NCBI RefSeq assembly: GCF_003991155.1
Contig: NZ_CP031293.1
Origin: Escherichia coli
Lineage (GTDB): Bacteria > Pseudomonadota > Gammaproteobacteria > Enterobacterales > Enterobacteriaceae
Length of the DNA stretch: 64,000 nt
Strand: one strand, 5' to 3'
A program made the translations under genes and the position numbers. Under the pieces are notes generated by a model, which was not told the DNA's origin, did not search any database, and was given only the letters and a program-made list of their open reading frames with translations. Positions 7,574 to 44,907 of this stretch are shown here, in pieces; the stretch's first letter is position 1, and each line of letters starts with the position of its first letter.

Positions 7574-7588
7574 CAACTCTCTCCGTAA

Positions 7589-8796: not shown

Positions 8797-8823
8797 TCAT
8801 CCTGCACAGTTAAAGGTAGCACT

Positions 8824-10140: not shown

Positions 10141-10151
10141 GGAGAACCGTT

Positions 10152-11165: not shown

Positions 11166-11204
11166 CCACTCAAGGCCTGAACAGCGGCGCGCTTATCGTT
11201 AAGG

Positions 11205-11383
11205 TAAGCGCGTTTTTTACCCGCCAGGACAAGACTATGATAGCGTTGCCCTTATAGACGATCACATTATCGTCCACTCCAAATTTGCGCAACTACTGTA
11301 GAGTGGTGTACTCCACAGCTTCTTTGAGGAGCTTAACCTCCATTGTTTTCTTACCGAGCAAGCACTGCAACTCTTTTATTTAT
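11205..11383. repeat. About 180-bp segment, copy A of a direct repeat (second copy at 37163..37348, roughly 90% identity by eye); IS-associated
   Basis: Shared strings include GACAAGACTATGATAGCGTTGCCCTTATAGACGATCACATTATCGTCCACTCC and AACTACTGTAGAGTGGTGTACTCC. Copy B encodes, on the minus strand, the 3' end of an IS3/IS66-type OrfA-like gene. Confidence 0.6.
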
Positions 11384-11585
11384 TTGTAGTGGTCAACAAA
11401 AACTGGTCACAATTTCAGTTTTTTTCCAGTATCTATTTTCCGATTCGTTCGGCGGTAATCCACCGTTATATTCATGAGGCCGGAGTGCACTATAAAAGTG
11501 TATGCGTAAACCGACTGCTGTATGTAGCCATTAAGCCAGTATTGGTAACATAGGTACCCACCTTTTCAACTAGTGGACACCTGTT

Positions 11586-11870
11586 ATGGAACAAAAAACA
11601 TTATCAGCTGAACCCCGCAGGTTATTTTCAAATGAGTTTAAACTTCAAATGGTTAAACTGGCTTTACAACCAAGGGGTTCTGTTGCCCGTATTGCCCGGG
11701 AGCATGATATCAATGATAATCTTCTGTTCAAATGGCTCAGGCTCTCGCTGATCAAAGGGCGTATATCACGGCGTCTTCCGGTAACGAACTCTTCTGGCAT
11801 TGGCGTTGAATTATTACCTGTGGAGATGACGCTGGATGAGCGGCCTTACCCCGTTTTTTACGCGAGGTAA
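11586..11870 (+). mobile_element. IS66-family orf1 (TnpA-like accessory protein) fragment; downstream tnpB and tnpC absent
   Basis: EFKLQMVKLALQPRGSVARIAREHDINDNLLFKW parallels the intact IS66 orf1 later in the window (EFKIALVEQSLQPGACVAQIARENGINDNLLFNW). No tnpB/tnpC follow, so this is a remnant. Confidence 0.55.
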
Positions 11871-12085
11871 TTATGAAGATCAATGACTAGCCGTCGAACC
11901 GCGTGCATGAACTGCTGCACTGAAACTTCTCAGCTGTAAAATAATCCTTACGCTACGTACTTCTCGGAGCGCTTACGATTAATCGGATGCAGTCCTGACT
12001 GGAAGAAAGAAAAATGGAGAAAATAAGAGGAATTAATATCCTCCACGTTCCTGAAATCCTGGAGGATATTAATGTCATCAAAATA

Positions 12086-13342
12086 TTAGCGAACGATAAT
12101 CCCTAACAAAATACCCAGTGCGCCAAAGTCAGCATCACTGAAGGTGGTGTTAGCAAAACCAATATCACCCAGCACCGGCAATAAGAATACTGGCAGGAAG
12201 GTAATAAGCAAGCCCTGAGCGAAGGCACCCAAAATCGCACCACGACGTCCACCCGTTGCATTACCGAATACCCCTGCAGCTGCACCTACGAAGAAGTGCG
12301 GCACCACACCAGGAATAATCACGATCATGTTCAGCAGATACAACGTGAACATACCGATTAAACCTGCAGCAAAGCTACTCAGGAAACCAACCAGTACAGC
12401 GTTAGGTGCGTAAGGGAAGACGACCGGGCAATCGAGAGCAGGTCTGGCATTCGGAACCAGCTTGTCTGAAATACCTTTGAATGCCGGGACAATCTCCGCA
12501 ATCACCATGCGCACACCCTGCAGAATGATGTACACGCCAGCTGCGAAGGTAATGGATTGCATGATAGAGAACATGAACCAGTTTTTACCACCGCTAAGCT
12601 CTTTCACCGCATCTGCACCCGCAAACAGGCACGTCACCAGGAAAATTATGCTCATGGTAAAAGAGATAGCAACCGGCGTGTCGCGCAAGAACAGCAGACT
12701 TTTCGGCACATTCATGTCTTCAGTCGAGTGCTCTTTATTACCAAACTTGCTGCCGATGAAACCGGCCAATACATAAGATAATGTTGAGAAGTGGCCGATG
12801 GCAACGTCATCAGAACCGGTCACTTTCTTCATGTACGGATGCGCAATAGCCGGGAAAAAGACCATTGCCACGCCAACAACCAAAGAGCCAACGGCTATAA
12901 GCGTAACGCCGGTCATGCCTGCTGTTGCCAGAATTACCGCTACCATCATCGACATAAACAACGTGTGATGACCGGTCAGGAAGATAAATTTCCACGGTGT
13001 GAAACGGGCAATCATAATGTTGATAACCATCGCAAAGAACATAATCATCGCCATTTCTTTCCCGAAGCTTTTCTGCGCTACGGAAACAATGGCTTCATTG
13101 TTCGGCACGACACCCTGAATACCAAAGGCATGCTGGAAAATGTTTGCGAAGTCACCCAGTGACGACACAACTAAACCCGCCCCTGCGCCTAAAATCACAA
13201 ACCCCATAATGGTCTTGACGGTACCTTTAATGCATTCGGTTACCGGTTTTTTCTGTGCAATCAGGCCAATCAGGGCGATTAAACCGACCAGCACCGCGGG
13301 TTCGGAAAGTACATCGCTCATCAAAAAACGAAAGAAATCCAT
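12086..13342 (-). CDS. PTS ascorbate-family (SgaT/UlaA-type) transporter subunit IIC
   Basis: 418-aa polytopic membrane protein with SgaT/UlaA-type sequence character; co-oriented with IIB and IIA genes. Confidence 0.85.
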   Translation of the reverse strand: MDFFRFLMSDVLSEPAVLVGLIALIGLIAQKKPVTECIKGTVKTIMGFVILGAGAGLVVSSLGDFANIFQHAFGIQGVVPNNEAIVSVAQKSFGKEMAMIMFFAMVINIMIARFTPWKFIFLTGHHTLFMSMMVAVILATAGMTGVTLIAVGSLVVGVAMVFFPAIAHPYMKKVTGSDDVAIGHFSTLSYVLAGFIGSKFGNKEHSTEDMNVPKSLLFLRDTPVAISFTMSIIFLVTCLFAGADAVKELSGGKNWFMFSIMQSITFAAGVYIILQGVRMVIAEIVPAFKGISDKLVPNARPALDCPVVFPYAPNAVLVGFLSSFAAGLIGMFTLYLLNMIVIIPGVVPHFFVGAAAGVFGNATGGRRGAILGAFAQGLLITFLPVFLLPVLGDIGFANTTFSDADFGALGILLGIIVR

Positions 13343-13354
13343 ATCGCCCCCAGC

Positions 13355-13642
13355 TTACAGTGCGCCTAATTCGGTTAATGCCACGGACAAACGTTCTCTC
13401 ATGGCTTTCTTATCAATCATATTTTCCAGGGCGACGATTTTGCCTGCGACAGACTGCGCGACTAACTGCTCGGCAATATCTTTGGTGCCGACATAGATAT
13501 CACTCGGCGTCCCTTTCGCGGAGCCCAGGTCGACATGATCAACATCAGCGCTGATGGACAAATCCTTCAAAATGCTTTTAATGCTCATTTCCATCATCAG
13601 GCTGGTGCCTAAGCCGTTACCGCAAACCACTGTAATTTTCAT
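13355..13642 (-). CDS. PTS ascorbate-family subunit IIB
   Basis: 95 aa with N-terminal MKITVVCGNGLGTS (catalytic Cys motif of L-ascorbate-family IIB); GAGGAA ribosome-binding site. Confidence 0.8.
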   Translation of the reverse strand: MKITVVCGNGLGTSLMMEMSIKSILKDLSISADVDHVDLGSAKGTPSDIYVGTKDIAEQLVAQSVAGKIVALENMIDKKAMRERLSVALTELGAL

Positions 13643-13657
13643 AAATGTTCCTCAGAA

Positions 13658-14101
13658 TTAATAGCGCGCAATAACAGACAAAATGTCCTGCGTCGTTTTG
13701 GCCGTCAAAATAGCCTGTATGTCTTTTTCGTTATCGAATAACTTGGCGAGTTGAGAAATCGCTTCAATGTGGCTGGTACTGTCGGTTGCAGCCAGCACAA
13801 TCAGTAATTTCACTGGATCGTTTTCATCGGCATCAAAATTCACACCTGAAGGGATCAGGGTCAGTGCTAATGACAGCTTGTTAGCCCCCTCTTCCGGGCG
13901 CGCATGAGGCATCGCAATACCAGGGCCAACCACATAGTACGGACCGATAGTGTCGTGCGAGTGATAGATCGCATCAACATAACGCGGTTCGATAGAACCG
14001 TTTTCAATCAACGGTCGGCATGAAATCGCCACGGCTTCCCGCCAGTCTTTGACCTGTTCCACGACCTGAACGACCTCTGTATTTAATAGATTTTTTAACA
14101 T
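13658..14101 (-). CDS. PTS subunit IIA (mannitol/fructose-type IIA fold, as in UlaC/SgaA)
   Basis: 147 aa with the conserved histidine region (GIAMPHAR); GGGAG ribosome-binding site; first gene of the IIA-IIB-IIC operon. Confidence 0.8.
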   Translation of the reverse strand: MLKNLLNTEVVQVVEQVKDWREAVAISCRPLIENGSIEPRYVDAIYHSHDTIGPYYVVGPGIAMPHARPEEGANKLSLALTLIPSGVNFDADENDPVKLLIVLAATDSTSHIEAISQLAKLFDNEKDIQAILTAKTTQDILSVIARY

Positions 14102-14371
14102 ACGACTGATAACTCCCGATGATAATTAACAGGAGAGTAGATATTTTACGCATTAATTAATGTGATGATTGTCGCATTTGATAGCGCTATCTGATAACGC
14201 TACCAATCTTTGTGATAGCGCTATCATTTCTCTGCCGCCATGCTTTGGCTATATTCGGTTCCTGCATATACAATGCAACAGGATATTTGCTACCGTGGGC
14301 AAAAACTGGAAAGAGTAATGGTGAAATAAAAGTAATGAAAACAGCTGGTTGTAATTATCCATGGAGTCGAA

Positions 14372-15403
14372 ATGGAAAAAACACGTAAGCGCCGTGGTAC
14401 CGGACGGGTGACGCTGCAGGAGGTCGCTAACTTTGCAGGTGTCGGAACCATGACCGTTTCCCGCGCGCTGAGAACACCGGAACAGGTTTCTGACAAGCTG
14501 AGGGAAAAGATAGAACAGGCCGTAGAAGAGTTGGGTTATATTCCCAACAGAACTGCTGGCGCCCTTGCATCTGGTCACAGTCATACAGTCGCCGTACTGG
14601 TTCCTTCCCTGACAGATAAAGCCAGCTCCCGCTTTATGCAGTCATTACAGCAGGTGCTTAATAAAAATGAATTCCAGCTACTGCTTGGGTGTCATGAGTA
14701 TAATCAGCTCAAAGAAGCTGAAATTCTGATGACGCTTCTTCAAGGCAACCCGGCGGCGTTAGTTATTTTTGGTTCTCAGTTGGCTGATAAAACTCACCAG
14801 ATACTCGAGAAAACAAATATACCTACCATTAACGTTATCGGTTCCCCTTTCAGTCCGGCTCAAATTACCATCGAAACAGCATTTTTTGAAGCATCACATA
14901 AACTGACCGAACATCTGCTGGAGCAGGGTTATAAGAATATCGGATTTATCGGTGCGCATATGGACAACCGCCTGCAACGTCAGCAACTGAACGGCTGGCA
15001 TAAAGCAATGCTGAGCCATTACCAGAACACTGATCTTGTTATCACCATGCCGGATGCCGCAAGTCTGCAATTGGGGCGTTACGCATTAAACGAGATATTA
15101 CTGCGACAACCAGAGCTGGATGCTGTGATTTGCAGCCACGAAGAGATTGCGCTGGGTATAATGTTTGAGTGCCAGCGGCGTTTGTTAAAAATCCCTGGAA
15201 ATATCGCTGTAGCTTGTCTTGACGGTTCAGACAATTGCGATCAAACACACCCAACTTTGACATCCATCCGTATTGACTACAAAAAAATGGGGATAGAGAC
15301 AGGTAAGTTACTGATTGGACTATTGAATAATAATCATGATGAATCAGAAGAGTCGCGTATCGTGCAATTCAACTACCAGATAGAATTACGTCAGAGTACA
15401 TGA
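14372..15403 (+). CDS. LacI-family transcriptional regulator, divergent from the PTS operon
   Basis: N-terminal helix-turn-helix (VTLQEVANFAGVGTMTVSRALR) plus periplasmic-binding-protein-like sugar-binding domain. The true start may be the GTG at about 14410. Confidence 0.8.
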   Translation: MEKTRKRRGTGRVTLQEVANFAGVGTMTVSRALRTPEQVSDKLREKIEQAVEELGYIPNRTAGALASGHSHTVAVLVPSLTDKASSRFMQSLQQVLNKNEFQLLLGCHEYNQLKEAEILMTLLQGNPAALVIFGSQLADKTHQILEKTNIPTINVIGSPFSPAQITIETAFFEASHKLTEHLLEQGYKNIGFIGAHMDNRLQRQQLNGWHKAMLSHYQNTDLVITMPDAASLQLGRYALNEILLRQPELDAVICSHEEIALGIMFECQRRLLKIPGNIAVACLDGSDNCDQTHPTLTSIRIDYKKMGIETGKLLIGLLNNNHDESEESRIVQFNYQIELRQST

Positions 15404-16145
15404 GCCTAAAAGAGCGCTATTACAAAGTTAGCTATTGTGGTAGGGATAGCCGTTTCCGGCTATTCCCCGCGCAGTTCCGGATGTATGCTGCTAACGCATC
15501 CATTCCTACTTCAGGTATTTGGCGTAGAAGCGGATGCTAAAAACTTGTCGCAAAACCGCAATATCAGCCTGCAGTATCGCTCTCCAGATTATCCATTCCT
15601 ATATTGATGACAACGACAGGTAAGACTGTGACTCACCAAACTTGGATGTTTTTCTGAGCTTAAAGCTCGTTGCGTGAATAAGGCGAGAGTCAGCGAATCT
15701 CATTGAGGCCCGCAGCACCGGCTGCAATAAGGATATAGAGCAGCAATCTACCGTCAACGTCAAAAACACGGAAGCCTTGCAAACGGGATGCGTTCATATA
15801 AACAACATGGAGCAGCAACAGTACGATGCCTGTTGTTGCTCAGTCAGGACCTTTTCTGCCATGCGCGAGCCAGCGTCACGATTGATAAATAATGTTCGCA
15901 ACTGATTACTTTACTGCAACAGACGTGGCTGGTAATAAGCGCTGGCGGACAATGCAGGGTGAAAGGCTGTTTTCGGGTTGTCCGGCCTGATACATCAGAG
16001 CAATACGTTGCGTTAAAAACGGCTGTTCAGTCTCTGATGCCACGGGGTATTGCAACAATCATCCGGTGATGGACGGGAGAAATATCGACTCTTCCGTTAG
16101 TTTTTACAGACTGATAAAGTTTTGCCAGCTGAATCTTTATACGGA

Positions 16146-16781
16146 ATGCTCTTCAGTATGCATATACGAATTGACTATCTGGCGGATAAAAACTGCTTTA
16201 CAGAACTGAATGAATCTCCACGCCTTCGCCGGCAGTGGCAGGATGTTCTGGAGGAGTGCCGGCAGACAGAGGCCGGGCCAGAAGAACGGCTGCGTATTGC
16301 TCTGCTGAATGTGGATTACGTCACCAGTTTTGAACTGCCTTTTCGCTTGTTGCTTACTCGTACACCACAACTGATTGCCGCGCTGCGTGAAGAATGGGAC
16401 ATCAGCCAGAAAAATGTGGTGTTCAACGATAAACGCTTTGGCTGCGTGTACAACCTGAAGGCCAGCCTTTCGGGTGGGCCGGATACATTCCGGTATCATC
16501 TGTCTCACCGTATTCGGCGGGTGGTTGCGAATGAAAACACATCATCGCCATACCAACTGATTGCCCGGGAAGTGAAAGCGCCCCGTCAACGGCTGAAGTA
16601 TGCGCTGGAGACAGGATTGCAGGTGAGCGCACTGGACGGCCTGTTCTGGTTCGGCAGCCAGCGCATTGCGGCAGATATCCTGAGGCTGAGAAAGTACGGG
16701 ATGCGGATTGCGACGGCTTCTGTGGACGTGTATGACAACATAACCGGAACAACTCGTCATATCCCTGTATATTACTCCTGA
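16146..16781 (+). CDS. Hypothetical protein upstream of cdiB, possible C-terminal DNA-binding region
   Basis: The ORF-track start at 16122 is a TTG; the first ATG is at 16146, with weak ribosome-binding-site support. I recognise no family; a possible helix-turn-helix-like stretch is at the C-terminus (GSQRIAADILRLRKYGMRIAT). Confidence 0.4.
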   Translation: MLFSMHIRIDYLADKNCFTELNESPRLRRQWQDVLEECRQTEAGPEERLRIALLNVDYVTSFELPFRLLLTRTPQLIAALREEWDISQKNVVFNDKRFGCVYNLKASLSGGPDTFRYHLSHRIRRVVANENTSSPYQLIAREVKAPRQRLKYALETGLQVSALDGLFWFGSQRIAADILRLRKYGMRIATASVDVYDNITGTTRHIPVYYS

Positions 16782-17002
16782 CGCAAAATAGTCTGTGGGG
16801 GCCGGAGCATGACCGGTAACCGGAACAGGGTTTTGCCCTCGTCACAGCCAAAAATACGTCCTTTATCACATTTCTTCGATTTTTCCTGATATTTTACCGG
16901 GTTACTGTTCAAAAATGCTTCTCTTCTGATGTAAATTTCTTTACTGACACTTTTTGACATGAATTTACACTGGCATCACACAGGCCAGAATACGGGGAGA
17001 AC

Positions 17003-18775
17003 ATGCAGCACCGGCAGAAAAACATTCTGACGAAAACGTCCCTTTTATCCCGTGCGTTGTCTGTCCCCTGTTGTGATATGTTCCGGCGCGGCTCTCCGTG
17101 GATATGCTATCTCTCCCTCTCCGTTTTTTCTGGTTGTTTCATCCCCGCATTTTCGTCTCCGGCAGCCATGCTGTCTCCGGGTGACCGCAGTGCAATTCAG
17201 CAGCAACAGCAGCAGTTGCTGGATGAAAACCAGCGTCAGCGTGATGCGCTGGAGCGCAGTGCGCCGCTGACCATCACGCCGTCTCCGGAAACGTCTGCCG
17301 GTACTGAAGGTCCCTGCTTTACGGTGTCAAGCATTGTTGTCAGTGGGGCCACCCGACTGACGTCTGCAGAAACCGACAGACTGGTGGCACCGTGGGTGAA
17401 TCAGTGTCTGAATATCACGGGGCTGACCGCGGTCACGGATGCCGTGACGGACGGCTATATACGCCGGGGATATATCACCAGCCGGGCCTTTCTGACAGAG
17501 CAGGACCTTTCAGGGGGCGTACTGCACATAACGGTCATGGAAGGCAGGCTGCAGCAAATCCGGGCGGAAGGCGCTGACCTTCCTGCCCGCACCCTGAAGA
17601 TGGTTTTCCCGGGAATGGAGGGGAAGGTTCTGAACCTGCGGGATATTGAGCAGGGGATGGAGCAGATTAATCGTCTGCGTACGGAGCCGGTACAGATTGA
17701 AATATCGCCCGGTGACCGTGAGGGATGGTCGGTGGTGACACTGACGGCATTGCCGGAATGGCCTGTCACAGGGAGCGTGGGCATCGACAACAGCGGGCAG
17801 AAGAATACCGGTACGGGGCAGTTAAATGGTGTCCTTTCCTTTAATAATCCTCTGGGGCTGGCTGACAACTGGTTTGTCAGCGGGGGACGGAGCAGTGACT
17901 TTTCGGTGTCACATGATGCGAGGAATTTTGCCGCCGGTGTCAGTCTGCCGTATGGCTATACCCTGGTGGATTACACGTATTCATGGAGTGACTACCTCAG
18001 CACCATTGATAACCGGGGCTGGCGGTGGCGTTCCACGGGAGACCTGCAGACTCACCGGCTGGGACTGTCGCATGTCCTGTTCCGTAACGGGGACATGAAG
18101 ACAGCACTGACCGGAGGTCTGCAGCACCGCATTATTCACAATTATCTGGATGATGTTCTGCTTCAGGGCAGCAGCCGTAAACTCACTTCATTTTCTGTCG
18201 GGCTGAATCACACACACAAGTTTCTGGGTGGTGTCGGAACACTGAATCCGGTATTCACACGGGGGATGCCCTGGTTCGGCGCAGAAAGCGACCACGGGAA
18301 AAGGGGAGACCTGCCCGTAAATCAGTTCCGGAAATGGTCGGTGAGTGCCAGTTTTCAGCGCCCCGTCACGGACAGGGTGTGGTGGCTGACCAGCGCTTAT
18401 GCCCAGTGGTCACCGGACCGTCTTCATGGTGTGGAACAACTGAGCCTCGGGGGTGAGAGTTCAGTGCGTGGCTTTAAGGAGCAGTATATCTCCGGTAATA
18501 ACGGCGGTTATCTGCGGAATGAGCTGTCCTGGTCTCTGTTCTCCCTGCCATATGTGGGGACAGTCCGTGCAGTGACTGCACTGGACGGCGGCTGGCTGCA
18601 CTCTGACAGAGATGACCCGTACTCGTCCGGCACGCTGTGGGGTGCTGCTGCCGGGCTCAGCACCACCAGTGGTCATGTTTCCGGTTCGTTCACTGCCGGA
18701 CTGCCTCTGGTTTACCCGGACTGGCTTGCCCCTGACCATCTCACGGTTTACTGGCGCGTTGCCGTCGCGTTTTAA
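17003..18775 (+). CDS. cdiB: Two-partner secretion outer-membrane transporter (TpsB; ShlB/FhaC/HecB family)
   Basis: 590 aa with POTRA-containing TpsB character, GGGGAG ribosome-binding site, immediately upstream of a 3288-aa TpsA-type exoprotein with a VENN motif. Confidence 0.9.
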   Translation: MQHRQKNILTKTSLLSRALSVPCCDMFRRGSPWICYLSLSVFSGCFIPAFSSPAAMLSPGDRSAIQQQQQQLLDENQRQRDALERSAPLTITPSPETSAGTEGPCFTVSSIVVSGATRLTSAETDRLVAPWVNQCLNITGLTAVTDAVTDGYIRRGYITSRAFLTEQDLSGGVLHITVMEGRLQQIRAEGADLPARTLKMVFPGMEGKVLNLRDIEQGMEQINRLRTEPVQIEISPGDREGWSVVTLTALPEWPVTGSVGIDNSGQKNTGTGQLNGVLSFNNPLGLADNWFVSGGRSSDFSVSHDARNFAAGVSLPYGYTLVDYTYSWSDYLSTIDNRGWRWRSTGDLQTHRLGLSHVLFRNGDMKTALTGGLQHRIIHNYLDDVLLQGSSRKLTSFSVGLNHTHKFLGGVGTLNPVFTRGMPWFGAESDHGKRGDLPVNQFRKWSVSASFQRPVTDRVWWLTSAYAQWSPDRLHGVEQLSLGGESSVRGFKEQYISGNNGGYLRNELSWSLFSLPYVGTVRAVTALDGGWLHSDRDDPYSSGTLWGAAAGLSTTSGHVSGSFTAGLPLVYPDWLAPDHLTVYWRVAVAF

Positions 18776-18787
18776 GGGATTATTACC

Positions 18788-28654: not shown

Positions 28655-28667
28655 AAAGAGGAAGTAA

Positions 28668-28988
28668 ATGGATATTTGGCCTGAATTTCAACGAGATCTT
28701 GAGATGTATCGAGATGTTGTTTTATCAATAAAACGTAACCTTCGGTTGTATGAGGAGTGTATTGAATCGTTAGTTCATCAGATCGGAAGCACCAATTTTG
28801 ATAATGCGCAGCCTCTATTTGATGACCTCTTTCGTATGCAATCTGAACTTGCTACTATGTTATACAAATATGAATATAAGCCAGGAAAAAGGATACAAGA
28901 TTTAATATATCATCTGGACAGGGATGATTTTTACTCAAGAAAATATTGGCATAAAAAATTCAGTGATGGATTGGCATGGCCTGAATAA
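28668..28988 (+). CDS. cdiI: Putative CdiI immunity protein cognate to the CdiA-CT
   Basis: 106-aa ORF starting 13 bp after the cdiA stop with an AGAGGAAG ribosome-binding site; visibly more AT-rich than cdiA, as expected for an exchangeable toxin/immunity cassette. The assignment is positional. Confidence 0.7.
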   Translation: MDIWPEFQRDLEMYRDVVLSIKRNLRLYEECIESLVHQIGSTNFDNAQPLFDDLFRMQSELATMLYKYEYKPGKRIQDLIYHLDRDDFYSRKYWHKKFSDGLAWPE

Positions 28989-29081
28989 TAGAAGTAGAAA
29001 TCCCGCCCTCAGTTAGCGCTGAGGAATCCCTAGTAATGGGCGGGTAAAAAAGACAGGCATAGAGTTTTGTGATCTACTGAT

Positions 29082-29642
29082 TTGTGCAACCAATTCAATG
29101 AGATCGCTTCTATGCCTGCTCGACAAGTATGTCAGAATTTTTTCCACGATGCGTTAGCACCGTTTCACAAATACCGACAAAATGCTTTGCTGGATGCCAC
29201 CATCGCTCTCATCAATGGCGCATCACTGACGTTGACCAGCATCGGGCGTTATTTACCCGGCTTGGCTCGGGTCAAAAATAAAATCAAACGCGTTGACCGA
29301 CTGCTCGGTAATGAATCTCTTCACCGCGATATCCCACTGATTTTCAATAATATTATTGCCATGCTGACTAGCCAGCTATCTCTTTGTGTCATCGCCGTTG
29401 ACTGGAGTGGATATTCATCTCAGGAGCATCATGTGCTCCGCGCCAGCCTGCTCTGCGATGGATGCTCGCTTCCCCTGTTAAGCTGGGTAGTCCCGTCAGA
29501 AAAACAGCAGAACTCGCAGATACAAAAAAACTTCCCAGATGCCCTTGCCGAGGCTGTAAACCCTGTGGCCAGAGTCATAATAGTTACCGATGCGGGTGTT
29601 CTTACCCCCTTATTTCCAGACAGGGGCTGTATCTTAAGTTAA
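29082..29642 (+). pseudogene. IS4-family (IS10-like) transposase, N-terminal fragment only
   Basis: RVKNKIKRVDRLLGNESLH ... VIAVDWSG ... VLRASLLCDG ... IIVTDAGV parallels the IS10 transposase N-terminus (KHNIKRIDRLLGN ... IVLVDWSD ... LRASVALHGR ... IVSDAGF). The frame ends after 186 aa where an IS3-family fragment begins. Confidence 0.6.
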
Positions 29643-29760
29643 CATTACCCGCTGACGTCGATATTCTCGCGGAGAGCGATAACCCAACGCACTATGCGGA
29701 TGGTTTTCATTGTAATGCTCGATCGCCACTGCAAGGTTTATATTGCCTGTTCATCGATCA
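29637..29760 (-). mobile_element. IS3-family transposase (OrfB) C-terminal fragment
   Basis: The minus strand encodes ...[35 protein letters not shown], the conserved C-terminal signature of IS3-family integrase-core transposases. Upstream frames are broken by stops. Confidence 0.55.
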
Positions 29761-30219
29761 TCAATCTCGTGAACTGTGAGACGAAACAGCGTACACTGTT
29801 TGAACGTATCTACTTTTCCCAATACTGGGCGAAGGGAGATGTTATTGCGAAGCGCGCTCCAATTAGTCAGTGGGAACCTTATTCGGAAGAGTCACTGCTT
29901 GTCATCATCGTCACCAGCGTCTGTCGTATTAAAGTCGCGATGCTAAAACCTGAACCTCCCAGAGATCCCCATATCCCGCTAATGGGGGATTTTAACTAAA
30001 ACTTAGCGCTATCGCTGCATATTGTAACTATCCCGCATCACGTATGCATAAATTATGACGCCATACGGGGAACAAATACACAGAGGAAGAAAAAGATTAG
30101 ATTGGTTTTAAGGGATTTTTTATCATAAATGGCGCTGCTAAAATTATGAGATTATCGAAGATAAAATTCTTGATCATACATAAAAGGCCTCCTGAATTAA
30201 ATCAAGAGGCGTATAGTTT

Positions 30220-31338
30220 TTATATTACTGATGTATGTTTAATGATCTCACTGATTTTCACTTTCCTGTCCTGCGATCTTGAAAGAGTGGCAGCATCAGC
30301 AGTAGCAATCGCCGACATGGCCGCCTCACCATTGAGAAGGTCAATATAATCTTCTTCAGGTTTTGCACCACTGAGGATATTATGGAGGAATAACGTCTCC
30401 TTTCTTATTAAACTGGCAAGCCATAATGGTGTTTTTTTTCCAGGATGACCATATGCTATAGCGCCATCCATTTCTGAGGTCATATTGCCTTTCCGACGAT
30501 CATCATCTTCTTCTTGTGTTTCATGGACCAAAAAATGCTTTGTCTGACCGCCAATCCTAAGTGACCCTGCTGTTTCTTGCATATCAATTTTAATAGAGCC
30601 TTTAGTTCCATTGATGATGACATAATGTTCTGGCCAGTTAAATGCACTCCCCCACTCTAAGGTTGCTAGTTTTCCTGACGGGAATTCCAAGGTCATAAAT
30701 AACATATCATCTTCATTGCCAAACCCTAGACCAGAATGAGCTAAATTTCCACCAATCATAGTAACCGTCTCTGGTATTTCTCCAAGTAAATGCTGAACAC
30801 AATCTAACTCATGTATATGATGATATAGATGTCCACCAGATTGTTCTTTCATCTTTTTCCAGGAAAGTCTCTCCTGTTTGTTTTCCCAGCCATTTCTCTT
30901 GGTATGACATGATAATATTTCGCCGATAACACCTTCTTTAATTAACTTCCGTGCATATTGAACTCCATTGAAAAAATTCATAATATGCCCAGCCATAAAG
31001 GTCACACCAGCTTCTTTACACGCTTTGACCATATCCACACAATCTTCATAACTTAATGCAATTGGTTTTTCACAAAAAACATGCTTCTTATTCTTTGCTG
31101 CTTTAATTACTGGATCTTTATGCAGATAATTTGGGGTGGCTACGATCACACAATCGACTAATTTACTTGAAACTAAAGCATCCAAGCTTGACATATTGAT
31201 ACATTGCAATTCACGGGCAATAGTTTCTCCATTTTCAGGATCGTATACACATGTAATTTTTGCATTATCATGCATATTCATAAAACGAGCTAATTCAGCG
31301 CCAAAGTATCCAACACCAACAACGCCATAATTAATCAT
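30220..31338 (-). CDS. yjhC: Gfo/Idh/MocA-family NAD(P)-dependent oxidoreductase, YjhC (NanY)-like
   Basis: 372 aa with N-terminal Rossmann motif (GVVGVGYFG); GGAGG ribosome-binding site; immediately downstream of a 405-aa NanT-like MFS gene. Both lengths match my recollection of YjhB/YjhC. Confidence 0.7.
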   Translation of the reverse strand: MINYGVVGVGYFGAELARFMNMHDNAKITCVYDPENGETIARELQCINMSSLDALVSSKLVDCVIVATPNYLHKDPVIKAAKNKKHVFCEKPIALSYEDCVDMVKACKEAGVTFMAGHIMNFFNGVQYARKLIKEGVIGEILSCHTKRNGWENKQERLSWKKMKEQSGGHLYHHIHELDCVQHLLGEIPETVTMIGGNLAHSGLGFGNEDDMLFMTLEFPSGKLATLEWGSAFNWPEHYVIINGTKGSIKIDMQETAGSLRIGGQTKHFLVHETQEEDDDRRKGNMTSEMDGAIAYGHPGKKTPLWLASLIRKETLFLHNILSGAKPEEDYIDLLNGEAAMSAIATADAATLSRSQDRKVKISEIIKHTSVI

Positions 31339-31349
31339 AAAGCCTCCAA

Positions 31350-32567
31350 TTATTTAGCCACGGATAGTTTATAAATTTTACCTGGAATATCAAAACCAAC
31401 TAACAAAATTAATAAGGCAGAGAATGCAACCGTAACAATGAATAATGAAACACCTAAGCCATAATATCTAGAAATGTATGTAGCTAATACAGGTGCGGCC
31501 ATTCCTCCAGTTGCCCCTAAGTTATAAATAAGACCGGTCCCTAATCCTCTTAATTTTGTTGGAAAGTAATCATATATAAATTTTGGAACCAACCCTGCAA
31601 TACCTAAATTTGTAAACATTAATCCAAAGAGACATAATCCTATAAGAAAAGAGTTTTTCACAGAAATAAAAAAAAGAGGACAAAGGAAAATAAATGAAGT
31701 TATTAGACCAACTACAAATGTTTTTTTTACACCAATCTTATCACCAACAAAACCAAAAAATATTGTACCTGTCAGTGTACCTAAACCTGCTATTGTCATC
31801 AGAGTTGAAATAACCACTGTATTAACTCCATTATCTGCTAGGTAGGAAGGAAGTAGTCCGTTTATCGGCCAGTTTGCACCAAATAGACAAAAACAGACGA
31901 GGAAAACGATCATAGAGATTGAAAGATGTGGTTTTCTGAAGACAGACAAAAATGTTGATTTATCCTTATATTTATCTTCAATCCACTCCTGACTTTCTGG
32001 AGCACTTTTTCTGATCCAAAGAACTAGTAAAACTGGTAACAGGCCTATAAAAAAAGAGTTTCTCCATCCATATACTTCAGCAAACTGAGGGATTATTTGT
32101 GCCGCAATAATATTTCCAACAGAAAAACCACTTACCAAAAAAGCACTAGCTTTAGATTGAAGATTTTTAGGCCAACTTTCTACTGCATAAGTTGAAGCAC
32201 ATGCATATTCACCAGACATCCCTAAGCCAACAATAAAACGGCAAACTGCGAGCATATATAAGTTTGTAGCAATACCGCTAAGGCCTGTTCCGACTGAGTA
32301 AATGATAATTGCCCACATCATCATTGGCTTACGCCCATATTTATCAGCCATGGCACCAAAAAAACCGCCCCCAATAGGTCTGGCTATGAAGGCCACTGTC
32401 CCTATTAAAGTGGCCTGAATATCCGTAATGCCAAGATCTGCTTTTATAATATGAAGAATGTAAAATATCATCATAAAATCAAAGCCATCAAATACATATC
32501 CAAGCCATGCAGAAAAAAGAGCTTTCCGTTGTGGTGGATTAACTTGTTTATACCATACTGTTGCCAT
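31350..32567 (-). CDS. yjhB: MFS transporter of the sialic acid (NanT) family, YjhB (NanX)-like
   Basis: Start placed at ATG 32567 (MATVWYKQ...) with an AGGAAA ribosome-binding site, giving 405 aa. Major-facilitator-superfamily signature; a NanR-type operator lies upstream. Confidence 0.7.
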   Translation of the reverse strand: MATVWYKQVNPPQRKALFSAWLGYVFDGFDFMMIFYILHIIKADLGITDIQATLIGTVAFIARPIGGGFFGAMADKYGRKPMMMWAIIIYSVGTGLSGIATNLYMLAVCRFIVGLGMSGEYACASTYAVESWPKNLQSKASAFLVSGFSVGNIIAAQIIPQFAEVYGWRNSFFIGLLPVLLVLWIRKSAPESQEWIEDKYKDKSTFLSVFRKPHLSISMIVFLVCFCLFGANWPINGLLPSYLADNGVNTVVISTLMTIAGLGTLTGTIFFGFVGDKIGVKKTFVVGLITSFIFLCPLFFISVKNSFLIGLCLFGLMFTNLGIAGLVPKFIYDYFPTKLRGLGTGLIYNLGATGGMAAPVLATYISRYYGLGVSLFIVTVAFSALLILLVGFDIPGKIYKLSVAK

Positions 32568-32976
32568 ATTTGTTTCCTGTGTTATTCTAATACAGCCCTT
32601 AAAGTAAATATTAGGGAGCCTCAACAATATCCAGCAATAATTATATTGTCTTCAAATACGCCAGTACTATTAATTGTTATCAATACCTAATCAGTACAAT
32701 CTTTTTCTCCATTTCTTCTTAACATATTTCACGCTATGAAAGATAAAACTGATACCCACCTTCAGTTTTGGGTCACCATCAAAAAAAATGTTCGCCAGAT
32801 ATTCCACCACTGGCACAGTTCAACCCTGCTTCAAAAATTGACTTATTCATTGTGCTCATTTTCGTAGTCCGTTCAGGTTGAATAAAACTCCCTTAGTCAA
32901 ATGAGGAAAGACTGAGAGGTTATTACTTTAGCTTACGTTATAGCTGTTTTCCTTTGCAGTATTTCTTTGCTTTTCT

Positions 32977-33000
32977 GTATACCTTTATACCTGTTATACC
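32977..33000. promoter_or_regulatory. NanR-type operator: three GGTATA hexamers (minus strand reads GGTATAACAGGTATAAAGGTATAC)
   Basis: Read directly from the sequence, about 410 bp upstream of the yjhB-like start. The tri-repeat GGTATA arrangement is the known NanR binding architecture. Confidence 0.5.
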
Positions 33001-33597
33001 AGATCAAAAAACAAGCAATCCACATAACAAAACGCGTTTTGTTACTGATGTCACAAATTGAGCATATTTTTGTATCTGATAGTTTGTTACAAACACCACA
33101 ACCAAGATGCCTATTTCGTTTCAGCATCAACTGTTAAATTATCTGGTTGCCAACGAGAATACTGAGCTTTTTTGTCCCTAAGACTGACCGTCAACGCAAC
33201 AATCTTTGACTGTTTGACATTGTCATGCCCGCAGGCCAGCGGATCTAAAGACATCAGACTGCTTGCATCAGCCAGTTGCGTATCTGGCTATGTCCCTTAA
33301 TTGGTAAGGGTTCGAGGAACTCAACATTAACGCATTTTTCAGCGCATCACCGACAGTGTATATGAACGATTGCACTCTGACGATGGTTGATTTATTTGGT
33401 TGCATAGGGGCTAGCTAGTCTGGTACCGGAGGCTGGATCTGAAGTACTGACCCTAGGAATAACGCCGGGCTGACTCATATTCTGACCCATTGTCAGCCCG
33501 CGTGTTTACTGCTCTAGCTCATTTCCTGTTGTCAGGCATTCAATTCCCAACTGCAGGTTATGGCCCGGTGAGCGAACACCTGACGGCAGGTATCACT

Positions 33598-33775
33598 CAC
33601 CCGGAGAAGGTAAATCCCTCAAGGGGCAGCAACTCTGCCAGTCGCTCCTCCGGCCACTCCGGCAGACGTGTCAGGACGTCTGTCAGCCAGGCATGTGGCT
33701 CCAGACCGTTGCGTTTCGCGGTTTCCAGCAAGCTCATTATTTGCGCAGCGCGTTCTCCCGCCATACGACAGCCGT
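33598..33775 (-). mobile_element. IS66-family transposase (TnpC) C-terminal fragment
   Basis: The minus strand encodes ...GERAAQIMSLLETAKRNGLEPHAWLTDVLTRLPEWPEERLAELLPLEGFTFSG*, paralleling the C-terminus of the intact IS66 TnpC in this window (...[40 protein letters not shown]...). Confidence 0.5.
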
Positions 33776-33797
33776 CAGAGCAGTGCGTCAGCGGGCG

Positions 33798-35642
33798 GCA
33801 GTTTTACCTGGGGTGCTGGCAGAGGTGGTTATGGCAGCGCCAGCCGCGATAATATCCACAGCAACTATGATTCCGTTAATGAGCAGAGCGGTATTTTCGC
33901 AGGCCGGGGTTATTTTGATATCACTGTGGGGAATCACACTCAGCTCGATGGTGCGGTGATTGCTTCGACAGCACCTGCCGACAGGAACTCGCTGGACACC
34001 GGTACTCTGGGCTGGTCGGATATCCATAACCAGGCAGACTATAAAGCCAGCTATACCGGAATCAGTTTATCGGGTGGCTCAGGGATGTCAGCCAGCCAGA
34101 TGGTGGCCTCAAATGCAATAGCCGGTGCGGCGAACGCACTTACCGGTATGTCCGGCAGCAGTGGACATGCTGAAGGTACCACGTCATCCGCCATCAGCGG
34201 CGGAAATCTCATTATCCGTGATAAGGAGAGTCAGAAGCAGGATATTGCCGGGCTCAGCCGGGACCCGGAAAACGCCAACGGCAGCATTGCACCGATATTT
34301 GACAAGGAGAAAGAACAGAAGCGTCTGCAGGAAGCGCAGGTTATCAGCCAGATTAGCGGTCAGATGAGTAATATCGTAATGACGTATGGCGAAACTGAAG
34401 CGATGAAAGCAGCCTGGAAAGAGCATCCTGGCATGAGCGATGCACAGTTGCGGGAGACTCCGGAATACAGAGAGGTCATGAAAGGCTACGGTACGGGCAG
34501 TTCGCCGCAGATGGTGGTACAGGCCATCACGGGCGTGCTGGGCGGACTGAATGCAGGGAACCCGGGGCAGGTATTGGCGGGCGGTCTGAATCCGGCAGTG
34601 GCACAGCTTATAAAACAGTCCACCGGCGATAACCGGGAAGCAAACCTGATGGCTCACGCAGTCTGGGGTGCACTTGCCGCACAACTGGGCGGAAACAATG
34701 CGGCTTCCGGTGCTGCTGGGGCATTCAGTGGTGAACTTGCAGCCTGGTATATCATTGATAACTACTACGGTGGTCGTACCGATAACCTGAGTGAACAGGA
34801 ACGTCAGCAAATCAGCATGCTGGCCACCATTGCCTCTGGTATTGCGGGGGGACTTGCAGGCAACAGTACGGCGTCTGCCGGTACGGGTGCACAGGCAGGA
34901 ACTCGGCTGAAAACAATATGCTGAACGTGATAGCCACTGAAACAGCAGCTAATACGGCAGCAGCAATAGCTGGTGCTACAGGTAATGCCAGTAAGGATAC
35001 CGGGAATGATAATAGCTGGGATACCGGTGGTGTTACGCTGGCTACGGGAACAGTGTGCTGTACGTGATCCGAGTCGCGATGGCACCCGAGGACCGGGGCA
35101 TGTGCTGAATGGCGACAATACAGACGGAAACAAACAGCCGAATCTGGGCAAAGACGTAGCGAGCGCAACGGATAAGGATAAAGCTGAGCTTGGTGGTGCA
35201 GGTGCTGGAATACCGGGGGGGATGGGGACCGGATAATGAAGAAAAAGCCCGTCATCAGGAGGTTCAGCAACAACGATTTGATGAACTGAGTAAAATATAT
35301 GATAAAAGTCACCCGGCCGGAGAGTTAACGGTGGATGGGCAGACTATCAGGCAGAGTTCGGTAAGTAACCGTTATGGTACGACGAAAGTGTTTGAAAGCC
35401 AGACTTTGACGGATAAACAGATCCACAATTACGCACAGCAACTGGCAGGCGATACACCGCTGAAAGAGGTAAAATCGGGAATCTACACGTCTAAACTATC
35501 AGATGGTTCGGTAATAACACTTAGAAACATATCTACATCAGAAGGTCAGACAGGCGCTCGTTGGACTATAGATATTCGTAATAACCAAAAGCTTACTGAA
35601 CTGGGGAATAAATATTCACGTGTGGAGATTAAGTTCAAATGA
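33798..35642 (+). pseudogene. Orphan cdiA-CT module 1: displaced 3' fragment of a cdiA gene with frameshifts
   Basis: DNA and protein homology to the pre-toxin region of the main cdiA begins at about 33798 ([51 protein letters not shown]). The VENN-equivalent (AENN, 34906..34917) lies in a different frame from the upstream ORF, and the toxin part is split over at least three frames. Confidence 0.6.
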
Positions 35643-35995
35643 TTACTGAGTTAAGTGAAAGAGAATACAAGGAGTTGACAGACGCTGCAGAGGGACAGAC
35701 TCTTGATGCTATTTTGTGTTATTCAGTTCCTGATATTCACCCTGCAGAGTTTAGTTTTGCAGATAGAAGAGAAATCTTTTTTTGGGCATTAACCCGTCTT
35801 CTGAAAGAAGGGCGTATCAAACTCGCCAAGCACGGTAAGTTTTTGGAAGGAAGTGTTGACGAGCAGGTTGAGCGTTTTCGACAGGCATTTCCGAAAACAG
35901 AAGAAGAGATGGAAGACGGTATCTGGTTTTTTGATGAGAGTTGTCCGGGGGGGGCTGTTTGGGTGCTTGAAGATGGCTCTCTCGAATGGACCTGA
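35639..35995 (+). CDS. Putative orphan CdiI immunity protein (module 1)
   Basis: Intact 118-aa ORF whose ATG overlaps the stop of the orphan toxin frame (ATGA overlap), the arrangement typical of toxin/immunity pairs. Acidic small protein; no family recognised. Confidence 0.55.
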
Positions 35996-37112
35996 TAACC
36001 CCTTCACAGCGCAGGATGCGGCGCAGCGAGCGTATAACAACGATATGGCGGCCTCAGTTTTTGGTACCGGAGGGAACGATACAGGCTACAACGGCAGCGG
36101 TACAGGGACTGGCCGGCGGTAATCTGAGTGCAGCCCTGGCAGGTGGTGCAGCACCGTATCTGGCCGAAGTGGTGAAAACCATGACCACAGACCCGGTTAC
36201 CGGTGAGGTGAATAAGGCTGCAAATGTGGCTGCTCATGCCGTGGTGAATGCCGCACTGGCTGTGGCACAGGGAAATAACGCTCTTGCCGGTGCTGTAGGT
36301 GCAGCCACCGGCGAGGTGGTGGGAATGATAGCCACACAGATGTACGGTAAGCCGGTGAGTGAACTGAGCGAGACAGAGAAGCAGACGGTCTCGACACTGG
36401 CAACGGTTGCTGCTGGCCTGGCCGGTGGTCTGGTGGGCGACTCGGGGCTTCAGCGGTAGCCGGCGCACAGTCAGGTAAGACGACTGTTGAGAATAATTTA
36501 CTTGGCGGTAGTGAAGATGCTCAGGCTGCGTGGATACGCCAGCATGGTATCGACATGGCAACATGTGCAGAAAACCCTTCTGGTGCCGCCTGCCAGAAAG
36601 CAATGAATGAGAGGGATGCTGTAGGGCTGGCTCTGGCAACAGGTACAGTGGCACTACTCCCCGGTAGTGCTCAGGCTGTGTGGGGACTGGGAGCAAGTGC
36701 GAATGCTGGTATCAGTTATCTGGCTGATGGTACTGTAGATCCGACAAACGCAGCCATTGCAGGCTGGGTGAATGTGTTCAGCATGGGTAATGGCCTGGCG
36801 GGGACTGTGGGCTGGAATGCGGCAGGTGGTGCGCTGGGTAACTGGATTGACAACAAAGATCCTCTGTCTGGTGCAATTTCAAATGGTATCGGTTCTGCTG
36901 CCGGGTATGGTATCGGTAAAGGTATTACTTGGGGGACAGATAATATTACGAATGCTGTAGGAAAATGGGTGACAAATGGCTGGGATCCTAAGTACGATCC
37001 AACATGGATAAAATATGCTGAAGTAAATCGTAACGATATCATTCGAGAAGGCATGAAACCGAGCAATGTTCTTGGAACTGCTGGAGATATTGGCGGTTCT
37101 ATAGGATCCTAG
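35996..37112 (+). pseudogene. Orphan cdiA-CT module 2: cdiA 3' fragment with a frameshift; glycine-rich predicted membrane-active C-terminal domain; no immunity gene follows
   Basis: Homology to the main cdiA pre-toxin region ([28 protein letters not shown] ... [20 protein letters not shown]) runs up to a VENN motif (TTVENNLLGG) reached only after a frameshift near 36455. The C-terminal roughly 185 aa are Gly/Ala-rich with GxxxG-like spacing. Confidence 0.5.
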
Positions 37113-37162
37113 CTAGGTGGAAAAGTAACTTAGTCTGCAAGGATCAGGAGTTACAGACGGCA

Positions 37163-37348
37163 TTGGCTTTACGCTTACCGTTTTTTTACGCGCCAGAACA
37201 AGACTATGATAGCGTTGCCCTTATAGACGATCACATTATCGTCCACTCCGACTTTGCGCAACTACTGTAGAGTGGTGTACTCCGCGGCTTCTTTGAGGAT
37301 CTCAACTTCCATGTTTTTTTACCCAGCAAGGGCTGTAACTCTTTTATT
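37163..37348. repeat. About 180-bp segment, copy B of the direct repeat (copy A at 11205..11383)
   Basis: See copy A. Here it overlaps the 3' end of the minus-strand OrfA-like gene 37231..37644. Confidence 0.6.
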
Positions 37349-37644: not shown

Positions 37645-37671
37645 CCACTGTCTGGCGTTTCAAGGGGCGCT

Positions 37672-38037: not shown

Positions 38038-38079
38038 AATATACTCCACTCCCCAAGGAGACGGCCCTGGGGAAGGTAA

Positions 38080-44854: not shown

Positions 44855-44907
44855 GTAAGCGCCTCATCTGAACCGTCTGGTCTGTTTCCTCCGGCTCCAC
44901 AAAAATA

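Follow-up and report, generated by a model that had tools for sequence, protein, structure and literature searches.

A Direct Repeat Around a PTS and CDI Gene Block in Escherichia coli as a Probable Relic of Island Assembly

Introduction

In a 64,000-nucleotide stretch of Escherichia coli DNA (hereafter, the window), two direct repeats of about 180 bp bracket roughly 26 kb of PTS and contact-dependent inhibition (CDI) genes. The original prediction proposed that such a pair can mediate excision or amplification of the intervening DNA. If the repeats recombined at a measurable rate, they would control the loss of a CDI toxin system, although the present evidence points otherwise. The question raised by this locus is whether the repeats act on the island or record how it was put together. 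The analysis makes it highly probable that both are old, by now diverged copies of a single dead scar, a uhpA-like start fused to a broken insertion sequence (IS), left by the modular assembly of an E. coli pathogenicity island. They look like an outcome of that assembly rather than its driving force.

Extent and Identity of the Repeat Pair

Pairwise and local alignment place copy A at 11213-11392 and copy B at 37182-37358, with a copy-to-copy spacing of 25,969 bp and an overall identity of 91% (161 matches, 16 mismatches, and 2 indels). Once the copies are compared with parental sequences, their left edges shift to 11211 and 37179, respectively, and the IS homology common to both stops at 11385 in copy A and about 37352 in copy B. 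A repeat scan of the whole window detected a single direct family, consisting of this pair, and no other repeat of at least 60 nt. A match of such length and identity within 64 kb is far beyond chance.

The predicted same-orientation pair is borne out by the pairwise alignment that had been proposed as a check, by the repeat scan, and by local alignment, and ORFs and RefSeq names agree that it brackets a PTS operon, cdiBAI, nanXY (yjhBC), and orphan CDI modules. A repeat of the predicted size exists, but the description of the copies as near-identical does not hold, as the uhpA' halves are about 95% identical and the IS halves about 87%. The longest perfect blocks in the alignment are 52 and 31 bp. 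Helix-turn-helix transposase-accessory fragments had been described beside both copies; they are present, and more precisely each right half corresponds to the 3′ portion of a remnant IS2-group ORF-A. To the right of copy A, beyond this remnant, lies an IS66 tnpA fragment. The features of the locus are collected in Table 1.

Table 1. Features of the two repeat copies, their flanks, and the interval (window coordinates).
Feature	Position	Strand	Basis or remark
ilvN' pseudogene fragment, left end of captured ilvN...uhpA slab	6552..6790	+	89.5% identity over 239 nt to K-12-type ilvN
Left module L: deoR (-), rbsK, fucP, aldose-1-epimerase-family genes	6791..11165		ORFs and RefSeq names
Intact ilvN-type intrinsic terminator hairpin and T-run	11186..11218	+	Directly upstream of copy A, runs into copy A
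Copy A left half: terminator tail, uhpA upstream region, first 21 codons of uhpA-like gene	11211..11297	+	86% identical to K-12 ilvN-uhpA
11-bp filler TAGAGTGGTGT at uhpA'/IS breakpoint	11298..11308		Between end of uhpA homology and start of IS homology
Copy A right half: 77-bp internal piece of IS2-group (IS3-family) ORF-A, encodes 'IKELQCLLGKKTMEVKLLKEAVEY'	11309..11385	-	88.3% identical to L006 2001-2077
About 120 bp between IS2-group piece and IS66-type end	11386..11505		No homology to IS or uhpA
IS66-family left end (GTAAACCG...) with truncated tnpA (94 aa)	11506..11870	+	NCBIfam IS66 TnpA, 1e-17
Intervening patchwork	11871..37125		ORFs, RefSeq names, GC steps, population distributions
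PTS IIC/IIB/IIA and lacI	12086-15403
cdiB/cdiA/cdiI	17003 to ~29000
nanY/nanX	30220-32627
Orphan cdiA-CT/cdiI modules	~33500-37112
Terminal 53 bp (left inverted-repeat end) of ISEc43-like IS66-family element	37126..37178	-	Terminus abuts copy B
Copy B left half: last two bases of terminator stem and T-run, then same uhpA' remnant as copy A	37179..37266	+	Copies of other genomes align from 37179
Same 11-bp filler as copy A	37267..37277		Identical between copies
Copy B right half with its continuation: IS2-group remnant of 419 bp that extends from ORF-A codon ~103 to the IS left end	37278..37696	-	92.2% identical to L006 2001-2423
Right arm R: hypothetical gene (-), pgtP (-), pgtC, pgtB, pgtA	37672..44303		ORFs and RefSeq names

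A Captured Piece of the ilvBN-uhp Locus

The left half of copy A aligns with the intact uhpA of Salmonella and Citrobacter. Instead of the response-regulator ORF of about 196 aa upstream of uhpB that defines full-length uhpA, the repeat holds 21 frameshifted codons followed by filler and IS, and the reading frame stops after 'FAQLL'. It is a pseudogene fragment riding in the island, not the chromosomal locus.

This fragment is the right end of a larger slab, which begins with an ilvN' remnant annotated by RefSeq in NC101, 536, and A37 as an acetolactate synthase small subunit pseudogene. In Citrobacter, Salmonella arizonae/diarizonae, Enterobacter, Raoultella, and Leclercia, the same four genes that follow it (deoR, rbsK, fucP, and the epimerase) have an intact ilvN on one side and an intact uhpA on the other, and the native order ilvBN-deoR-rbsK-fucP-epimerase-uhpAB is found in many Enterobacteriaceae. 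The arrangement is widespread, and a donor scan of one genome per species gave no representative above about 84% nucleotide identity. Islands of this kind carry a captured piece of the enterobacterial ilvBN-uhp core locus.

The terminator that runs into copy A is homologous to the K-12 ilvN-uhpA intergenic terminator and folds at -18.5 kcal/mol (z = -3.8); it was folded directly, as the promoter/terminator scan missed it through a loop-length limit. It probably still ends the rbsK-fucP-epimerase operon, and it is the only part of the repeat region with a plausible working role. An Rfam scan found no structured RNA within the repeat. The stretch of about 120 bp at 11386-11505 is conserved in every A-type genome examined, and a sub-threshold AfaR match (33 bits vs. 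a gathering score of 100) overlaps it.

The IS2-Group Half and the Shared Breakpoint

In both copies, IS2-group homology begins at the same internal IS position, inside the transposase CDS of a full-length IS at a plasmid locus (L006), and the 11-bp filler TAGAGTGGTGT that precedes it is identical. Because the breakpoint is the same, copies A and B descend from one deletion event. An IS terminus at this point, which would permit independent insertions, is ruled out by its location inside the transposase gene of the full-length relative and by the filler common to both copies. A simple IS fragment is also ruled out as the identity of the repeat, half of which is uhpA/terminator sequence.

An intact IS3-family (IS2-group) element features two terminal inverted repeats around ORF-A and ORF-B with a programmed frameshift. 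Copy B keeps the equivalent of L006 2001-2423 and copy A that of 2001-2077, and ORF-B and the right end are absent. The remnant is 92% identical to the plasmid IS of L006 and 86-87% identical to copies annotated ISEc48. Its ORF-A belongs to the IS2 TnpA subfamily: the copy B remnant matches NCBIfam 'IS2 repressor TnpA' (NF006928) at 1e-34 over profile positions 4-93 of 121, with a score of 119.6 bits that is kept under the curated cutoff of 229 bits by the truncation and frameshift of the protein. RefSeq labels it an incomplete, frameshifted transposase pseudogene. Of the 419 bp of this remnant, the shared repeat takes in only 37278 to about 37352.

The outer edges of the shared stretch differ between the copies. 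On the right, copy A has undergone a further truncation, next to another IS66-family end that is 88% identical to an IS66-like element of strain SK0189. On the left, copy B is bounded by an IS66-family terminus inserted in the terminator. The 53 bp abutting copy B match, at 94-100%, the ends of annotated ISEc43 copies on one plasmid and one chromosome, whose flanks diverge exactly after ...CGCTTAC, and folding indicates that the terminator hairpin is lost in copy B. The last bases of this terminus mimic the terminator arm, and the left edge first given for copy B (37163) has to be moved: 37163-37178 is IS66-family terminus with a chance likeness to the left arm of the terminator.

The Interval and Its Island

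The window represents an E. coli genomic island, and a tRNA scan of its 64 kb found no tRNA. The interval between the copies is a patchwork of at least four modules, not one unit. GC content changes in steps along it (45-48, 55-59, 34-38, and 47-56%), IS remnants are also present among the modules, its content varies between strains, and the modules differ in their population distribution.

Population Distribution and Alleles of the Scar

A survey of 5,426 complete genomes found the context of copy A in about 1,192, and copy A with the PTS arm only in about 1,050. The proposed comparison with genomes lacking the interval is provided by 85 genomes, including UPEC 536 in GI-pheV, in which a single copy is joined to the pgt arm. 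Both copies occur in 55 genomes, with copy B in its orphan-CDI flank, and the right arm in 146. Examples of each class were inspected: 536 and A37 (single), cS100a and ETEC1738 (A-only), and NC101 and Combat2C1 (double). Right arm R also follows the single copy in UPEC 536 and A37.

Copy A is 96.8-100% identical to the allele of A-only genomes, and the IS half of copy B is 96.8% identical to single copies. The left half of copy B is 100% identical over 87 bp to the single copy of UPEC 536. Single copies are of the copy B allele type, all of them share private SNPs absent from A and B, and the right arm of single-copy genomes is about 1.3-1.8% diverged from that of the window. The UPEC 536 copy has the intact terminator that is absent in copy B, yet shows the derived SNPs of B from 9 bp further on. 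In 11 genomes the single copy is A37-like, with A-type states at SNPs 1 and 2 and B-type states from there on; the left flank of A37 is 99.6% identical to that of the window. Outgroup comparison places derived changes on both allele lineages, with an intermediate allele in cS100a. Between allele types, divergence is 13-16% in the IS half but only 0.4-1.7% over the 4.4-kb left flank. If the copies are relics of assembly, this gap needs an extra assumption, either that the flank was homogenized by recombination or that the IS half was converted by another IS copy.

Origin of the Two Copies

The anatomy, shared breakpoint, IS termini, population classes, and allele relationships are demonstrated; we infer the joining mechanism and the order of events, the latter from a handful of inspected genomes and the class counts rather than from a full phylogeny. 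An enterobacterial slab (ilvN'-deoR-rbsK-fucP-epimerase-terminator-uhpA) would have been captured in a tRNA-Phe genomic island, where an IS2-group element inserted nearby and one deletion then joined uhpA codon 21, via the 11-bp filler, to the inside of the IS ORF-A. The scar would have persisted in two alternative island architectures with a common left module. In the single type, represented by GI-pheV of UPEC 536, a long IS remnant is followed by the pgtPCBA arm, and in the A-only type, which is the commonest, the IS remnant would have been cut to 77 bp, followed by an IS66-family end and a PTS-lacI-(ape)-cdiBAI arm. The two-copy form would then have arisen by attachment of the right-hand portion of a single-type island downstream of an A-type arm, at a joint marked by the ISEc43-like IS66-family terminus within the terminator. 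The likeliest mechanism would be recombination between IS66-family copies or homology-anchored illegitimate recombination, after which the IS decayed to 53 bp. The 180-bp repeat would be the stretch that survived both truncations, copy B having been cut on the left and copy A on the right.

It is considerably less probable that the repeats are active and that the pair recombines homologously to remove the 26-kb PTS/CDI block, with the 85 single-copy genomes as the products. These genomes do have exactly the predicted architecture, and the left flanks of A37 and the window are nearly identical. The A37-like alleles pass from A-like to B-like across the 52-bp perfect block, as an A-by-B crossover there would give. 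RecBCD/RecA recombination in E. coli needs a processing segment of at least roughly 25 bp, a length that both the 52- and 31-bp blocks exceed. However, the A-like states at the first two SNPs are ancestral and hence require no crossover, 536-like single copies would require one within about 9 bp, and the private SNPs shared by all single copies, together with the divergence of their right arm, show that they are not A-by-B products of the sampled two-copy lineage. The joint expected of a recent deletion, at 98.7% identity or more, is absent from the 5,426 complete genomes, in which the best match reaches 97.5%, and so are the joints of a reciprocal circle or a tandem amplification, in a sample that is blind to rare excision events within a culture. 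The idea of repeat-mediated excision or amplification finds no backing at the population level. The copies are 91% identical, share no perfect block longer than 52 bp, and lie 26 kb apart, which makes the repeat a poor substrate for RecA-dependent deletion, and at most a weak recombination substrate. A related reading, also unlikely, treats the left module and scar (ilvN'...epimerase-terminator-uhpA'-IS2') as a shared anchor by which PTS/ape/CDI and pgt/fimbrial arms are swapped or stacked among pheV/pheU islands, with occasional A-by-B exchange in two-copy strains shedding the CDI/PTS block and leaving the A37-like copies. If so, the repeat would genuinely, though modestly, switch the carriage of a CDI system.

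Two further explanations carry very little weight. Campbell-type integration, in which a circle bearing the 26-kb block and one scar copy recombined with a resident single copy and so duplicated the homology on either side, would yield direct repeats around the insert, and single-copy "empty" sites exist. Yet copy A is no hybrid made by integration, because its allele and left flank occur in roughly 1,050 genomes without copy B. Copy B is single-type-like over its whole length, which would force the crossover to its extreme left edge, where the boundary is an IS66-family terminus and not one of homology, and the survey found no circle joint. Still harder to credit is a recent in situ duplication, or a composite transposon that had two inward-facing IS66-family left ends as its boundaries and left this footprint. 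Such ends do face into the interval on both sides, but they differ in sequence, and the left one lies 120 bp away from copy A. IS66-family transposition yields 8-bp target duplications, not 180-bp ones. A recent duplication is excluded by the 9% divergence and the lineage-specific alleles.

The reading as a fossil scar amounts to a clean negative, in that a repeat pair resembling an excision device is a fossil breakpoint in two island modules of common descent. The shared uhpA'/IS2' junction is useful as a lineage marker, and together with the bounding IS66-family termini it offers exact breakpoints for reconstructing how PTS/ape/CDI and pgt arms were combined in B2-type E. coli islands.

Relation to Known Systems

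The right half of each copy is homologous to ORF-A of IS2-group (IS3-family) elements, and the IS left end is kept in copy B. Unlike an intact IS, however, the remnant cannot transpose, because it lacks ORF-B and the right inverted repeat, its ORF-A carries a frameshift, and it is broken off inside the element. A composite transposon would feature the same IS at both ends and short target-site duplications outside; here the IS66-family ends are differing remnants and the 180-bp repeat is not IS-terminal. The left half matches the ilvBN terminator and the first 21 codons of uhpA, the response-regulator gene of the uhpABCT sugar-phosphate system, in K-12, Salmonella, and Citrobacter, but differs from the chromosomal gene: it breaks off after 21 codons, has lost 1 bp behind the ATG, and is about 86% identical to the E. 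coli gene.

Long direct repeats that support RecA-dependent deletion or amplification, such as IS- or rrn-flanked segments, share the geometry of direct repeats around a dispensable block. Compared with typical active repeats, the 180-bp pair is much shorter and more diverged, and neither reaction product occurs among the 5,426 genomes. The published att repeats of GI-pheV (attL/attR) are 19-23 bp of the 3′ end of the tRNA gene pheV and serve as substrates for a P4-type integrase (PMC11537424). Whereas att repeats derive from a tRNA 3′ end and flank the island beside a tyrosine integrase, the 180-bp repeat lies inside the island, goes back to uhpA and an IS, has no relation to the att sites, and is not an integrase substrate.

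A close likeness is to the modular tRNA-Phe islands (GI-pheV/PAI V536 and related pheU islands). GI-pheV of 536 holds the pgtABCP locus and evolves modularly by insertion, deletion, and recombination (PMC11537424), and the single-copy locus of 536 lies inside the published GI-pheV coordinates, adjoining pgtABCP. The window has cargo of the same type (Ag43, pgt, pap, and CDI) and many IS remnants, and it agrees with the published model, in which modules are gained, lost, and recombined (PMC11537424). In this company, the repeat is an ordinary relic of IS-driven modular island assembly.

Structure of the Repeat and Its Edges

Local alignment of copy A (11213-11392) with copy B (37182-37358) gives 161 matches, 16 mismatches and two small indels, a similarity (91% identity) far beyond chance; the longest perfect blocks are 52 and 31 bp, and the copies start 25,969 bp apart. 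The pairwise alignment confirms the direct repeat of about 180 bp proposed in the original prediction, with both segments in the same orientation, although "near-identical" was generous at this identity and the edges shift slightly. In a window-wide scan the pair is the only repeat family of at least 60 nt, and an Rfam search returned no match to it.

Features of the repeat and its surroundings (window coordinates)
Feature	Position	Strand	Remarks
ilvN' pseudogene	6552-6790		Left of copy A; 89.5% identical to K-12 ilvN
Left ~87 bp of repeat			ilvBN terminator tail, uhpA upstream region and first 21 codons of uhpA-like gene; aligned to K-12-type ilvN-uhpA locus
11-bp filler TAGAGTGGTGT	11298-11308 (copy A); 37267-37277 (copy B)		Same in both; at uhpA'/IS2' breakpoint
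IS2-group remnant, copy A	11309-11385	-	77 bp, aligned to L006
IS2-group remnant, copy B	37278-37696	-	419 bp, reaches IS left end, aligned to L006
IS66-family left end, truncated tnpA	~11506-11870		Different from that at copy B
ISEc43-like (IS66-family) element end	37126-37178		Terminal 53 bp; found at ends of annotated ISEc43 elements, plasmid and chromosome

In a large-scale search, a portion of copy A matched the K-12-type E. coli ilvN-uhpA junction at ~86%. The uhpA-like gene is dead because of a 1-bp deletion immediately past its ATG, and in both copies uhpA homology ends at ...CAACTACTG. Beyond the filler lies an IS ORF-A on the minus strand (copy A translation 'IKELQCLLGKKTMEVKLLKEAVEY'). 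The ORF running on from copy B (37231-37644, minus strand) scores 1e-34 against the NCBIfam 'IS2 repressor TnpA' subfamily, covering profile positions 4-93 of 121, and a full-length IS relative on a plasmid (locus L006) is 92% identical to the remnant. The uhpA stump is a pseudogene, as is the ORF-A remnant, which RefSeq also marks as frameshifted and incomplete.

The IS remnant begins at L006 position 2001, within the transposase CDS, in both copies. Because the breakpoint lies inside the IS, and breakpoint and filler are common to both copies, the sequences indicate that the two must descend from one deletion event. Two separate IS insertions as the source of the copies are excluded by the same shared features. 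Just ahead of its breakpoint the IS reads TTTCGCGACTG, which bears a loose resemblance to TTTGCGCAACTACTG, the uhpA sequence at the breakpoint there, a hint that the deletion was microhomology-assisted.

Copy B can be aligned to the copies of other genomes from 37179 only, and the orphan CDI module only to ~37129. Since the intervening 53 bp recur at the ends of annotated ISEc43 elements, whose flanks diverge exactly past ...CGCTTAC, the left edge of copy B is the end of an IS66-family element that inserted into the terminator. This end also truncates the orphan cdiA-CT/cdiI array of the window; in strain 25DN (L092) the array runs on, with further modules, beyond that point. At the right edge of copy A, the IS2-group piece is followed by ~120 bp homologous to neither the IS nor uhpA, and then by the other IS66-family end. 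What remains as the 180-bp repeat is the overlap between two copies of one module that were truncated differently. Overlapping the ~120-bp stretch and the IS66-type left end is a full-length but sub-threshold Rfam match to the AfaR sRNA (RF02515; 11399-11603, minus strand; 33 bits vs a gathering threshold of 100, E = 0.0012), which probably reflects shared sequence from islands or an IS and not a genuine AfaR gene.

A Captured Enterobacterial Locus

Between ilvN' and copy A lie deoR, rbsK, fucP and an aldose-1-epimerase-family gene. Relatives of the epimerase were sought in one genome per species, with IlvB, IlvN, UhpA and UhpB placed in the flanks by tblastn. The order ilvB-ilvN-deoR-rbsK-fucP-epimerase-uhpA-uhpB is native to the chromosomes of Citrobacter braakii, C. 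werkmanii, C. portucalensis and C. amalonaticus, to Salmonella enterica subsp. arizonae and diarizonae, and to Enterobacter, Raoultella, Leclercia and others. Therefore, part of an enterobacterial core locus has been captured by the island, and the repeat starts within the epimerase-to-uhpA intergenic region of this slab. Among the species sampled, each by one genome, none was closer than ~77-84% nucleotide identity. Folding shows an intact terminator hairpin beside copy A (-18.5 kcal/mol, z = -3.8) and its loss at copy B; the one that runs into copy A probably still serves as the terminator of the rbsK-fucP-epimerase operon.

From the stop codon onward, the K-12 ilvN-to-uhpA intergenic region has its homologue in the island's region between epimerase and uhpA (window 6552-11240; compared loci L012-L018, L021 and L061). 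K-12-type E. coli looks like the product of a precise loss of the four-gene deoR-rbsK-fucP-epimerase module, with a diverged copy surviving in pheV/pheU islands.

Population Classes and Interval Content

The population survey covered 5,426 complete E. coli genomes, about 1,192 of which carry copy A's context in some class. A single copy, with the order epimerase, one repeat, long ORF-A remnant, hypothetical gene and pgtP, occurs in 85 genomes (UPEC 536, F11 and A37 were inspected); its joint is contiguous and 96.5-97.5% identical to the predicted sequence. Two copies, copy B having its orphan-CDI flank, occur in 55, and the right arm in 146, consistent with 85 plus 55. Subtraction leaves about 1,050 with copy A and the PTS arm only, such as cS100a and ETEC1738, the latter having a PTS-lacI-ape-truncated cdiBA arm in its pheU island and neither copy B nor pgt.

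Interval content differs between strains, and only 21 genomes match at least 80% of it in one place. NC101 has everything found in the window and, in addition, a ~14.5-kb aryl-polyene (ape) cluster, which sits between lacI and cdiB there and in ETEC1738 and is absent from the window (15403-17003; compared loci L001 and L093, NC101); it seems to have been lost by the window lineage or gained by the others. MS 200-1 has an extra IS21, and GC content changes stepwise between modules.

For the 3,288-aa cdiA (within 18788-28654), the annotation in relatives is that of a tRNA-nuclease CDI effector; a small ORF, putatively for immunity, comes next. The nanY/nanX (yjhC/yjhB) block (~29750-33700) has a very low GC content (34-38%). 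The segment also occurs elsewhere in E. coli, making this a second copy; it shares 97.7% identity with the one beside IS4 insG on the K-12 chromosome, and in the window it is flanked by IS4/IS5 and integrase-core remnants. Past it lie several orphan toxin/immunity modules with VENN motifs (33668-37112). Downstream of pgtA is an apparently complete IS66-family element (44543-47523; tnpA, tnpB and tnpC ORFs of 121, 225/115 and 523 aa), where the otherwise identical Combat2C1 has only IS remnants.

Recombination Between the Copies

The interpretation given in the original prediction, that direct repeats of this size can mediate excision or amplification, is only partly supported. Both predicted joints, deletion and reciprocal circle/tandem, were built and searched for in the 5,426 genomes. 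Single-copy genomes exist, but the best match to the deletion joint is 97.5%, vs the 98.7% or more expected of a recent recombinant, and the circle/tandem joint was found in none. RecA/RecBCD exchange in E. coli needs a minimum of ~25 bp; despite perfect blocks above this length, only rare RecA-dependent events are expected because of the 9% mismatch and 26-kb separation.

Copy A is identical to the NC101 and ETEC1738 alleles and 96.8% identical to that of cS100a. The uhpA' half of copy B is 100% identical to the UPEC 536 copy, and its IS half 96.8% identical to single copies, which carry private SNPs found in neither copy A nor copy B and a right arm 1.3-1.8% different from the window's. The UPEC 536 copy has an intact terminator yet carries copy B's derived SNPs from 9 bp further on, so an A-by-B crossover would have to lie within those 9 bp. 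In A37-like copies the first two SNPs are A-like and those after them B-like, the pattern that a crossover in the 52-bp block would give; this is a caveat, but both A-like states are ancestral and no crossover is required. Polarized with intact uhpA genes and an intact IS, derived changes fall on both lineages and the cS100a allele is intermediate, which indicates old vertical divergence.

Divergence between the A-type and single-type alleles is 0.4-1.7% over the 4.4-kb left flank, 2-5% across the uhpA' half and 13-16% across the IS half. We read this gradient as an old split in which recombination would have homogenized the long shared flank while the 77-bp edge escaped, though this leaves part of the pattern unexplained, and alternatively another IS2-group copy may have acted as a conversion donor.

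Proposed Assembly of the Island

In the most likely history, a single deletion would have made the uhpA'/IS2' scar in an island with the captured ilvN...uhpA slab, and the scar would then have existed in two alternative architectures with a common left module. An ISEc43-like element may have landed in the terminator of a single-type island, whose right part would have been joined downstream of the A-type arm's orphan-CDI end, likely by recombination between IS66-family copies or by homology-anchored illegitimate recombination; the element would later have decayed to 53 bp. Such a history would make the repeats a by-product of island assembly, useful as a breakpoint marker. The UPEC 536 single-copy locus falls within the published coordinates of GI-pheV, which the same study describes as a modular island evolving via insertion, deletion and recombination (PMC11537424). 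Ultimately, the repeat is an ordinary leftover of modular island evolution driven by IS elements and not a new kind of element.
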